Shown: in pieces, positions 13,799 through 16,056 of the stretch
How positions within the stretch are numbered: position 1 is the stretch's first letter
Layout: each line of letters starts with the position of its first letter
DNA from: Actinobacteria bacterium UBA5976
GTDB lineage: Bacteria > Actinomycetota > Actinomycetes > S36-B12 > UBA5976
Assembly: GCA_002430405.1 (NCBI GenBank)
Contig: DJBM01000032.1
Coordinates: 861-28,839 of the forward strand
Direction of reading: 5' to 3'
DNA: 27,979 bases
The notes under the pieces: generated by a model
The model's input: the letters and a program-made list of their open reading frames with translations, nothing else
Told to the model about the DNA's origin: nothing
Database searches by the model: none
Translations under genes and position numbers: made by a program

Positions 13799-14419
13799 GT
13801 GTCAATCTTTGGCGAACTTTTGTTTACACCGCAATGTATTTCTTGTGCGCGGTTAGGCAAAGCATTGTGTCTTGCATGCCTTGGGTCACTAAAACCATTT
13901 TCCACTCAGCGGTTTTTGGGAATATCCCGTACTTATTGCGCTGGAGAGTATTCAGGTTGGTTGCGGGAAACTCTAATAACTTACAAAAACGGCAACGTGA
14001 GCGTCGCACCCGCGCTGGCACAAATCCTGCTACAAACTTTGGAAACCTGGCTGGTCAATGTTCCATTGCAAATTATTCCGATACCGAGTTCAAGAGCGAA
14101 GAATCACTTGCGAGGGTATGACTCGATATCAAAGTTGTGCGCCGAAATGTTGCAGCAGAAAAGAGACCTACAGGTTACCCAGGGTGCACTCTATTTGGGA
14201 CGTGAAGTTCGGGATCAAGTTGGCTTAGATGCTCGCCAACGGCAGGCAAACCTTTCTGGCGCATTTACTGCGAGGCACAGATTAAGTGGCACCGTAGTGC
14301 TAGTAGACGACGTAACTACGACTGGCGCCACACTTACTAACGCTGCCAAAGCCCTTCGAATTGCAGGAGCGCAATCCATTTTTGCCATCGCTTTGTGTGG
14401 TTCACCAGATAACAGGTAA
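13799..14419 (+). CDS. comF: ComF family phosphoribosyltransferase-like protein
   Basis: CxxC...CxxC zinc ribbon, PIPSS...RGYD, RQANLSGAF, LVDDVTTTGAT. Usual position after lpqB. Confidence 0.9.
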   Translation: MSIFGELLFTPQCISCARLGKALCLACLGSLKPFSTQRFLGISRTYCAGEYSGWLRETLITYKNGNVSVAPALAQILLQTLETWLVNVPLQIIPIPSSRAKNHLRGYDSISKLCAEMLQQKRDLQVTQGALYLGREVRDQVGLDARQRQANLSGAFTARHRLSGTVVLVDDVTTTGATLTNAAKALRIAGAQSIFAIALCGSPDNR

Positions 14420-14422
14420 TCT
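14417..14422 (+). promoter_or_regulatory. Predicted -10 element TAATCT for the raiA-motif RNA (TSS about 14429)
   Basis: TANNNT hexamer 6 nt upstream of A14429, the base just before the closing stem. Same spacing as at many gene starts in this window. Confidence 0.55.
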
Positions 14423-14429
14423 TCAACTA

Positions 14430-14693
14430 TGGCGCCCACCCGGGTCCGTGATTGCATAGCAAAGTGAGTGCTTCGAAGTTGTTTTGCTATAAGCCGATGC
14501 CAGCCGCAGGCTAAGCGGTCCACGTAAGACGACTTTTGGTCGTTGAGCACGGTGCGGTTTAGAAGTAAGACCTGCCTGTACTTTGATCCAGATGGTCAAA
14601 ATCTACAGCGAGGGTTAGTAGTAGCGATTGACGCTGCAAAAGCTCCAGCAGGCGAATGTGGGGTCGAAAATCAGGTCGGACGGGTGGGTGTCA
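14430..14693 (+). ncRNA. raiA-motif non-coding RNA
   Basis: Conserved blocks recognised from recalled family members: AAGCCGATGCCAGCCGCAGGC, GGTCCACGTAAG, TGAGCACGGTGCGGTTTAGAAGTAAGACCTGCC, CCAGCAGGCGAATGTGGGGTC. Closing stem TGGCGCCCACCCG (14430-14442) pairs with CGGGTGGGTGTCA (14681-14693), with G-U pairs. It lies directly downstream of comF, the known context. No covariance model was run. Confidence 0.9.
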
Positions 14694-14788
14694 CTTCTTT
14701 GCAAAACCGATAACTCGTGACCGATGCAATCACATTTAGTGTGCCCGCTATGTTTAAAGTAACTTCCAAATAGAGCAAGGTGTGAGTT

Positions 14789-15988
14789 TTGAGCGAAAAA
14801 CAAATACTTGAAAAACAAGATTTTATTTTCAAGGCAATGCCGCTATTTTTCGTTGCAATGACGCTTCGACCGTTAACCACTTCCGTCGGACCAGTGTTAC
14901 CGGAAATCCGGGAAGATTTTGGTTTGAGCGCAACTGCCGGCTCGCTACTTAGCACTTTGCCAATTTTGATGTTTGGTCTTGGCGCGCTGTTAGTTCCACG
15001 ATTACTTCACAGAGTGAGTCCGAATAAAGCCGTCACCCTGAGTTTGCTGGCTTTAGCAATTGGTGGGAATTTGCGTTTACTACCTTTTGTTGTGGTGCTA
15101 TATCTGGGAACCATCATTATCGGTTTAGGAGTAGCCGTTGGAAACATAGTTCCATCGTTAATTACCCGCCGCGACTTTCCAACTCGGATAGGTGGAGTCA
15201 TGGGAATGGTTGCGGGTGCCATTTCTTTCTCCGCAGCTGTTGCTGCGTTAATAACATATCCCTTGGCTACACAGCTTGGTTCTTGGCGCGAAGCACTAGC
15301 CGTGTGGGCAATTCTGCCTTTGCTTGTTTTTATCATTTGGCAGCTATATCGAAACCCAAATACTAAAGATGAACCATTATCGACACCGCACAATATGAAA
15401 GCGTTACTTCGTAACCCACTTGCTTGGAGCCTGACTTTTTATTTTGGATTTCAATCTATAAATTTTCATTCCATGAATACCTGGCTGCCGACTATTCTGC
15501 GCGAAGCAGGAACTGATCCAGTAACCGCTGGTAACCAACTCGCATTACTAGTTTTGATCGGTCTACCAACTGGTTTGTTCGTACCTCCAATGGCGGCAAG
15601 ATTCACTTCGCAAGTTGGATTATGTGTTGGATTCGTTGCCATTTTTGCAGTTGGACTTGTAGGGATTTATAGCTTTGCAATTTATGGATTGTGGCCAGCT
15701 GCAACTTGGCTTTGGGTATTTCTCTTAGGAGTCGGCTTAGGATCCTCATTTCCATTGGCCTTAACTTTGGTTTTACTGCGTTCCGGAAGTCCGGAAACAT
15801 CCCGAGATTTGGGATCCTTCATGCAAGGTGGCGGCTACATAATTTCTGCAACCGGTCCATTAACGATGGGATATCTTCGCGACGTCACAAATTCTTGGTC
15901 AGCTGCATTAATTGCACTTGGGGTTGCGCTATTAATACAGTTAATTTCTGGCGTGATAGTTTCTCGGCCAGTGAGCATTCACGAATAG
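14789..15988 (+). CDS. MFS transporter, CynX/YeaN-like
   Basis: LRPLTTSVGPVLPEIREDFGLS, about 12 hydrophobic segments, WLPTIL, QGGGY.I.A.GP. The TTG start is uncertain. Confidence 0.8.
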   Translation: MSEKQILEKQDFIFKAMPLFFVAMTLRPLTTSVGPVLPEIREDFGLSATAGSLLSTLPILMFGLGALLVPRLLHRVSPNKAVTLSLLALAIGGNLRLLPFVVVLYLGTIIIGLGVAVGNIVPSLITRRDFPTRIGGVMGMVAGAISFSAAVAALITYPLATQLGSWREALAVWAILPLLVFIIWQLYRNPNTKDEPLSTPHNMKALLRNPLAWSLTFYFGFQSINFHSMNTWLPTILREAGTDPVTAGNQLALLVLIGLPTGLFVPPMAARFTSQVGLCVGFVAIFAVGLVGIYSFAIYGLWPAATWLWVFLLGVGLGSSFPLALTLVLLRSGSPETSRDLGSFMQGGGYIISATGPLTMGYLRDVTNSWSAALIALGVALLIQLISGVIVSRPVSIHE

Positions 15989-16056
15989 TTCTCTGCTTCA
16001 CTTTTGGCACGATTTTCTATAACTAAGTTTTGTAATTAAAGAGGTACTATCCCAAT

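Follow-up and report, generated by a model that had tools for sequence, protein, structure and literature searches.

Our analysis of the window, the whole 27,979-nucleotide stretch of DNA under study, made it highly probable that it carries a full-length raiA/ModT RNA that is expressed from its own promoter, acts in trans, and was kept after at least three deletions of hpf. The host, a freshwater actinobacterium of the acI type, belongs to a Nanopelagicales genus and has a streamlined genome; its genome (G000) is a 1.31-Mb assembly of 148 contigs, 61.6% complete, in which the window (46.8% G+C) is contig C130. A contig of the genus's type, 24 kb long (L085, CAMBGF010000013.1), was found in a MAG record titled ‘Bifidobacterium breve’; the LpqB encoded there is 79% identical to that of the window, and the organism label looks mistaken.

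The RNA and its genomic setting

The Rfam raiA model RF03072 matched positions 14435–14688 (+) with 150.3 bits (E = 9e-38) against a gathering score of 101.3 bits, and the match covered model positions 1–209 of 209. In the Rfam search of the G000 assembly, the RNA was present as a single copy. The original prediction had named a raiA-motif RNA and asked for this model as a check, and the result agreed with it: the window RNA is a full-length raiA-motif (ModT) RNA and belongs to the actinobacterial, P2-containing type. Taking the covariance-model match, the fold, and the genus alignment together, the complete RNA including its extended closing stem P1 spans approximately 14430–14693 (+).

The closing stem had been predicted to have 13 bp and was found in that form, with 14430–14442 pairing with 14681–14693; the MFE fold closed the RNA with 12 of these 13 pairs (14430–14441). 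Across 31 genus sequences, 12 pairs of P1 were kept, the sole exception being one non-standard A-G pair in one sequence, and compensatory changes occurred in 4 of these 12 pairs. Compared with the Rfam model, P1 was longer by 3 conserved bp in the genus and by 5 bp in the window sequence. The three extra pairs (G-C, G-U, and C-G; window 14431–14434 with 14689–14692) were kept in 31 of 31 genus sequences.

He et al. 2026 (PMC12968392) define a conserved core and a P1 with GU and GGU bulges, report that the length of P1a is conserved in the raiA family, and place a linker, UUAGA(C/A)GUAA, between PK1 and P6. The P1 bulges (P1a/P1b/P1c) were present in the window RNA, the 5' strand reading CCCACCCGG-GU-CCG and the 3' strand ...AUCA-GGU-CGGACGGGUGGG, and the positions of the bulge region were invariant or covarying in the 31 genus sequences. 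The conserved single-stranded linker UUAGAAGUAA (14559–14568, +) fits the published consensus and was unchanged in 29 of the 31 sequences, the other two each differing at one base. Core strings of the raiA motif were conserved in the Rfam alignment of the window RNA, which also contained a 35-nt insertion relative to the model (14457–14491, +) that folds as a hairpin, a P2-type peripheral stem, with compensatory changes at alignment columns 28–35 and 57–65. Peripheral stems were also present in the P5–P8 region, and within the genus the peripheral stems varied in sequence and length. The closest structural parallel is Ns-raiA, the highest-complexity subtype with P2, which was solved by cryo-EM (PMC12968392). 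The window RNA resembles it, in a comparison that is sequence-based here, in the P2-type hairpin, the P5–P8 peripheral stems, the P1a/P1b/P1c bulges, and the linker.

The RNA lies 10 nt behind comF, the usual place of the raiA/ModT family (RF03072; Weinberg 2017, PMC5737381), with which it also shares the full model, the P1 bulges, the core strings, and the linker. Upstream, the gene order is MtrB-like kinase, LpqB, and ComF-family protein. The ComF-family phosphoribosyltransferase gene (13799–14419, +) was recognized by Pfam Pribosyltran and had TIGR00201 comF as its best NCBIfam match, covering the full profile at a score below the cut-off; wherever a genus locus extended far enough, comF preceded the RNA. 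Downstream, a CynX/NimT-like MFS transporter gene (14789–15988, +; 289.9 bits to its best family, below the cut-off) is followed by genes for a SOUL protein and a DUF255 thioredoxin-like protein. The gap between the end of comF at 14419 and the start of the MFS open reading frame at 14789 measured 369 nt, where about 370 had been predicted, and the CynX-like MFS proved to be the next gene as foreseen, at that sub-threshold score.

Probable promoter, transcript ends, and expression

The RNA very probably has a promoter to itself, marked by a TANNNT box, the pattern typical of actinobacterial -10 elements. The sequence TAATCT (14417–14422, +), which overlaps the comF stop codon TAA, is of this type and would be the promoter of the RNA; it ends 6 nt before A14429, the predicted transcription start, in agreement with the -10 element originally proposed. 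A TANNNT box was found in 32 of 32 genus genomes checked. In 31 of them it preceded the Rfam start by 10–13 nt; in the other (G006) it lay 19 nt before an RNA start that was itself taken from a partial BLAST match. The sequence flanking the box was not conserved across the genus. A scan of 14300–14900 returned no -35 element, no full sigma-70 promoter, and no canonical terminator, and because that scan was negative the promoter claim rests on the conserved TANNNT box. The predicted promoter was thus upheld as very probable through its -10 box, but not through a -35 or sigma-70 match.

The RNA would begin at about A14429 and end at or shortly after the T-rich tract CTTCTTT (14694–14700, +), a possible 3' end signal of non-canonical type directly behind P1. 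This tract had been predicted as a U-rich tail; its position and the genus-wide enrichment of T over the 10 nt that follow P1 (5.0 on average vs 2.7 expected) agreed with that description, but it is not a canonical terminator. Sequence 3' of P1 did not align across the genus.

RNA libraries contained the RNA as a short stretch of coverage, as has been seen for raiA/ModT elsewhere. A search with 13800–15990 identified 13 RNA runs, each sharing 7–11% of words, and contigs from four runs of four studies were compared with 14100–15000, the other 9 runs (7–8% of words) being left out. Together, these contigs covered 14437–14715, and they show presence rather than ends, strand, or level. One contig of 252 nt was identical to 14437–14688, and another of 264 nt spanned 14451–14714. 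Some contigs ran 20–35 nt past the T tract, those of relatives reaching 14714–14715 and beyond, and read-through toward the MFS gene may occur given this extension. The four runs contained no contig on the comF or MFS flanks within 14100–15000, where absent coverage is not evidence.

The RNA could alternatively have no promoter of its own and be cut from an lpqB-comF transcript, the conserved TA...T then being nothing other than the comF stop. We consider this unlikely, and it nevertheless accounts for several observations: in all genomes, the distance from the comF stop to the Rfam start was 8–30 nt (about 5–6 nt less to the extended start), a mere 10 nt separate comF from the start of the window RNA, in 24 of 32 genomes the comF stop codon itself supplied the TA of the box, and no -35 element was detected. 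Among the other eight genomes, the comF stop was called elsewhere in six and the box was still kept, one (G050) had a short contig without a comF open reading frame, and in one (G056) a second box did lie on the comF stop. Where the comF stop lay elsewhere, the boxes read TACGGT, TAGCGT, TACCTT, and TACCGT, and the TANNNT pattern held its position. Moreover, hpf-bearing relatives had an ATG or GTG 6–7 nt after the box, which is the actinobacterial leaderless layout. Transcription from the TANNNT box is the reading that we retain.

Deletion of hpf and retention of the RNA

Genomes of 41 species of the genus were searched with the PF02482 profile for hpf and with RF03072 for the RNA. Of these 41, 33 contained the RNA and 7 contained hpf, PF02482 being without a match in the other 34. 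Ten genomes of 90–98% completeness carried the RNA and had no hpf anywhere (G001, G003, G011, G020, G022, G044, G045, G046, G047, and G054). Wherever both occurred, hpf was the gene immediately 3' to the RNA, both in the genus (G009, G013, G016, G017, and G052) and in other families of the order, and these relatives encode a bona fide HPF/YfiA. Four layouts after the RNA were seen in gene maps covering 35 genus loci: hpf in 5 genomes, MFS on the same strand in 20 (window included), an opposite-strand gene and then MFS in 3, and a different opposite-strand gene in 5.

A tree of MtrA, MtrB, LpqB, and ComF (1519 columns), rooted with three hpf-bearing genomes of other families, placed hpf at the base and required three changes of state, in the window's 22-species clade, in G047, and in G003. 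Apart from the missing hpf, G003 had exactly the same gene order as its sisters G016 and G052, which carry the gene. In this reconstruction, hpf was shown to have lain ancestrally directly 3' of the RNA and to have been deleted at least three independent times within the genus, with the RNA retained each time; it was this deletion that made the MFS gene the neighbor of the RNA.

The original prediction had been that the RNA stayed with comF when hpf moved away. Its first half stood, as the RNA lies beside comF, but hpf was deleted rather than moved, being absent even from 98%-complete relatives. The proposed check for hpf in the full genome was run, and PF02482 had no match in the G000 assembly, a negative that is weak alone at 61.6% completeness, so that the absence of hpf from G000 itself rests on its relatives. 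The predicted absence of both hpf and secA from the window held: secA was on contig C55 of G000 and, in the genus, on contigs other than that of the RNA locus.

An hpf gene that relocated and still sits in the unassembled part of G000, with the RNA merely remaining beside comF, would fit a negative search in an incomplete assembly of 148 contigs. It is very improbable in view of the relatives: PF02482 exceeded the cut-off in none of the 20 genomes with the comF-RNA-MFS layout, which include G011 and G045 (98% complete, in 8 and 10 contigs) and G001, G020, G044, G046, and G054 (91–94% complete), and in every hpf-bearing genome hpf adjoined the RNA or comF and was never elsewhere.

Deletion of hpf also bears on whether the RNA regulates its downstream neighbor. 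The RNA is better read as free-standing than as an hpf regulator, which is what had been proposed, since it was kept after repeated hpf loss and its downstream gene is variable; no co-oriented gene was constant behind it across the genus, the next gene being hpf, MFS, or, in 8 genomes, an opposite-strand gene. A cis-acting, riboswitch-like leader of the MFS mRNA has some features in its favor, namely the shared strand, the short interval between P1 and the MFS start (about 95 nt), the lack of a canonical terminator between the two, the RNA-library contigs that extend beyond the T tract, and the Rfam classification of RF03072 as ‘Cis-reg; riboswitch’. We nevertheless give it only a very small probability. 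The MFS gene became the neighbor only through hpf deletion, the RNA was equally conserved in the 8 genomes with an opposite-strand next gene, and no terminator-like site that could serve as an expression platform was detected between the RNA and MFS. Published work on C. acetobutylicum points the same way, as trans complementation was demonstrated and a riboswitch role argued against (Soares 2024, PMC10861870). A free-standing RNA is therefore the reading carried forward here.

The hpf-bearing relatives revealed a second layer at this locus. An ATG or GTG located 6–7 nt after the TANNNT box and followed by an open frame was found in 5 of 5 genus members with RNA and hpf (G009, G013, G016, G017, and G052; loci L045, L053, L054, L060, and L066) and in 5 of 6 outgroups (loci L079 and L081–L084). 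The frame ran stop-free through the whole RNA for 99–136 codons, with 0 stops in the hpf-bearing genus members. Its stop met the hpf start as TAATG in G009 and as ATGA in G017, overlapped the hpf start in G033, G016, G052, and G035, and lay 6 to 34 nt before it in G038, G013, and G026. Dinucleotide shuffles gave P = 0.02–0.14 per sequence for a stop-free frame, values that we do not combine, as the lineages share ancestry. In hpf-less genomes, the start codon was mostly gone and the frame contained 1–7 stops, many of which came from a 1-nt indel that places conserved motifs in frame. Exceptions were found on both sides: start and frame were intact in G053, and the frame was open with the start lost in G047 and G054, all without hpf, and the frame was closed in outgroup G027, which has hpf. 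In the window, the frame comparison identified a relic of 12 codons (14429–14467, +), from the ATG at 14429 to the TGA at 14465–14467. After each hpf deletion, at least some of the genomes in the lineage lost the start or acquired stops in the frame, and the fold was kept. This decay of the frame after hpf loss suggests why RNA and hpf so often adjoin. Among the papers listed in our literature search, none joined the raiA motif with leaderless translation, uORFs, or coupling.

Coding potential of the window RNA itself was considered and rejected, as stops occurred in every frame (2 in frame 1 and 6 in each of the other frames).

The reverse case was found in two sister species, G008 and G042 (95% and 97% complete), which have hpf and no Rfam raiA match. 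Their comF-hpf spacer of 166–168 nt contains a TACGGT box with a start codon 6 nt later and a 99-nt core-less element (L064:6525–6647, +, in G008; L065:6933–7029, -, in G042), in which a 12-bp P1a-like stem closes two hairpins and shows one compensatory change between the species. The frame through the element stays open for 36 or 47 codons and closes 37 nt or 2 nt ahead of the start of hpf. The element looks like a raiA locus from which the core was deleted. An assignment as a minimal raiA subtype was rejected, as the spacer between comF and hpf in G008 gave no Rfam match even with E allowed to reach 10.

In G008 and G042, mtrB and lpqB are likewise absent from the interval that separates the response-regulator gene from comF, and the window's LpqB had no match anywhere in these two genomes. 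Absence of the RNA core coincides here with absence of MtrB-LpqB, in what amounts to a single evolutionary event.

Fold and frame thus each appear to be losable alone, in few independent events, and this fits two functions on one transcript. We tentatively propose, as a possibility that falls short of being likely, that the Actinomycetota raiA locus produces one transcript with two separable functions: a trans-acting RNA independent of HPF, c-di-GMP, and sporulation, and a leaderless frame that would pass ribosomes on to hpf.

The comparison across the genus indicated that the RNA is under purifying selection in a compact genome, as had been suggested. RNAalifold predicted 69 pairs from the 31 genus sequences, 17 of which showed compensatory changes, counts that are not independent events, as the sequences are kin. 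Identity of the RNA to the window copy was 77–97% across the genus, and the neighboring proteins in the same genomes were only 39–73% (ComF) and 38–79% (LpqB) identical to those of the window. Full-length Rfam scores of 141–157 bits were obtained in every genus lineage with the RNA, and one match clipped by a contig start scored 114.6 bits. Decay of the RNA into a functionless relic after hpf loss has next to no probability and is already largely refuted, for although its ancestral neighbor is gone and the frame through it has gathered stops, its full-length scores lie far over the cut-off in every lineage, its helices are maintained by compensatory changes, its conservation far exceeds that of the neighboring proteins, RNA libraries contain it, and genuine decay, with neither core nor Rfam match, has the different appearance of G008 and G042.

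Mode of action and comparison with known systems

A stand-alone, trans-acting reading of raiA RNA has already been published (Soares 2024; Lence 2024), and raiA RNA without raiA behind it is common. Among 887 loci, comFC was upstream in 74% and raiA downstream in 66% (Soares 2024, PMC10861870). The C. acetobutylicum RNA is independent, abundant, and trans-complementing, and is followed by gntR (PMC10861870); C. difficile ModT is an independent, abundant, trans-acting transcript with short and long isoforms that exerts its effect via c-di-GMP (Lence 2024, PMC11706538). Neither of these experimental models has raiA behind the RNA (PMC10861870, PMC11706538), and the window locus is like them in this respect, with MFS in the place of gntR in C. 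acetobutylicum and of the PTS antiterminator in C. difficile. The trans-acting reading of the original prediction was right in direction, but its novelty was overstated, as the same had been published for both clostridial models. New here are the repeated loss of hpf from whole genomes, the mostly absent GGDEF, the decay of the frame, and the reverse case.

The window RNA differs from its clostridial counterparts in its host, a non-sporulating, genome-streamlined freshwater actinobacterium, and in that hpf is missing from the whole genome, on the evidence of relatives, and not just from the locus. The GGDEF domain (PF00990) was not found in 9 of 10 genus genomes tested (G000, G001, G008, G009, G011, G014, G017, G042, and G045), G016 being the only one that has it. 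Most genus members tested are apparently unable to make c-di-GMP, and the c-di-GMP route of C. difficile ModT is inapplicable to them. These planktonic bacteria are not known to sporulate. Our literature search found no paper on Nanopelagicales and hibernation.

The raiA/ModT RNA is widespread and, where it has been measured, highly abundant. The phenotypes reported so far (sporulation, aggregation, c-di-GMP level, and stationary-phase entry) all come from Clostridia. Because the RNA was retained after genome-wide loss of hpf, its conserved function must be independent of HPF, and because no GGDEF was found in most members tested, that function must there be independent of c-di-GMP synthesis as well. 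The genus keeps the RNA without hpf, mostly without diguanylate cyclase, and without sporulation, and its retention under all three conditions narrows the core function to something independent of them.

The hpf-bearing relatives invite comparison with the leaderless short open reading frames at the head of mycobacterial operons and with translational coupling (bioRxiv 10.1101/834739; PMC12548453). The box, the ATG or GTG, the frame, and a stop near hpf are shared with these layouts. The frame here differs in that it crosses a large, conserved, structured RNA rather than a short unstructured leader, and that of the window ends after 12 codons and has no hpf behind it.

In the mechanism that we propose, the locus would give rise to a stable, structured, trans-acting RNA, most likely assembled with KhpA/KhpB-type KH-domain proteins into a ribonucleoprotein. 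These proteins may bind at the exposed UUAGAAGUAA linker, a putative site, and the conserved P1 arm could serve as another contact surface. The transcript would have an additional role in hpf-bearing relatives, as a leaderless open frame coupled to hpf translation, a layer that seems to have decayed in the window. The linker UUAGA(C/A)GUAA has been proposed as a KhpA-KhpB binding site (PMC12968392), and binding was reported at micromolar affinity, for clostridial proteins only, which bind many RNAs (He et al. 2026, PMC12968392). A search for candidate partners found KhpA (79 aa, 75 bits) in G001, G011, and G045, and not in G000. A KhpB-like KH protein was present in 5 of 5 genomes tested, G000 included; it was recognized by its KH domain alone, Jag_N (PF14804) having no match in the 5 genomes. 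The streamlined genus leaves a small gene set in which to search for partners of the RNA, and KhpA/KhpB are still present in it.
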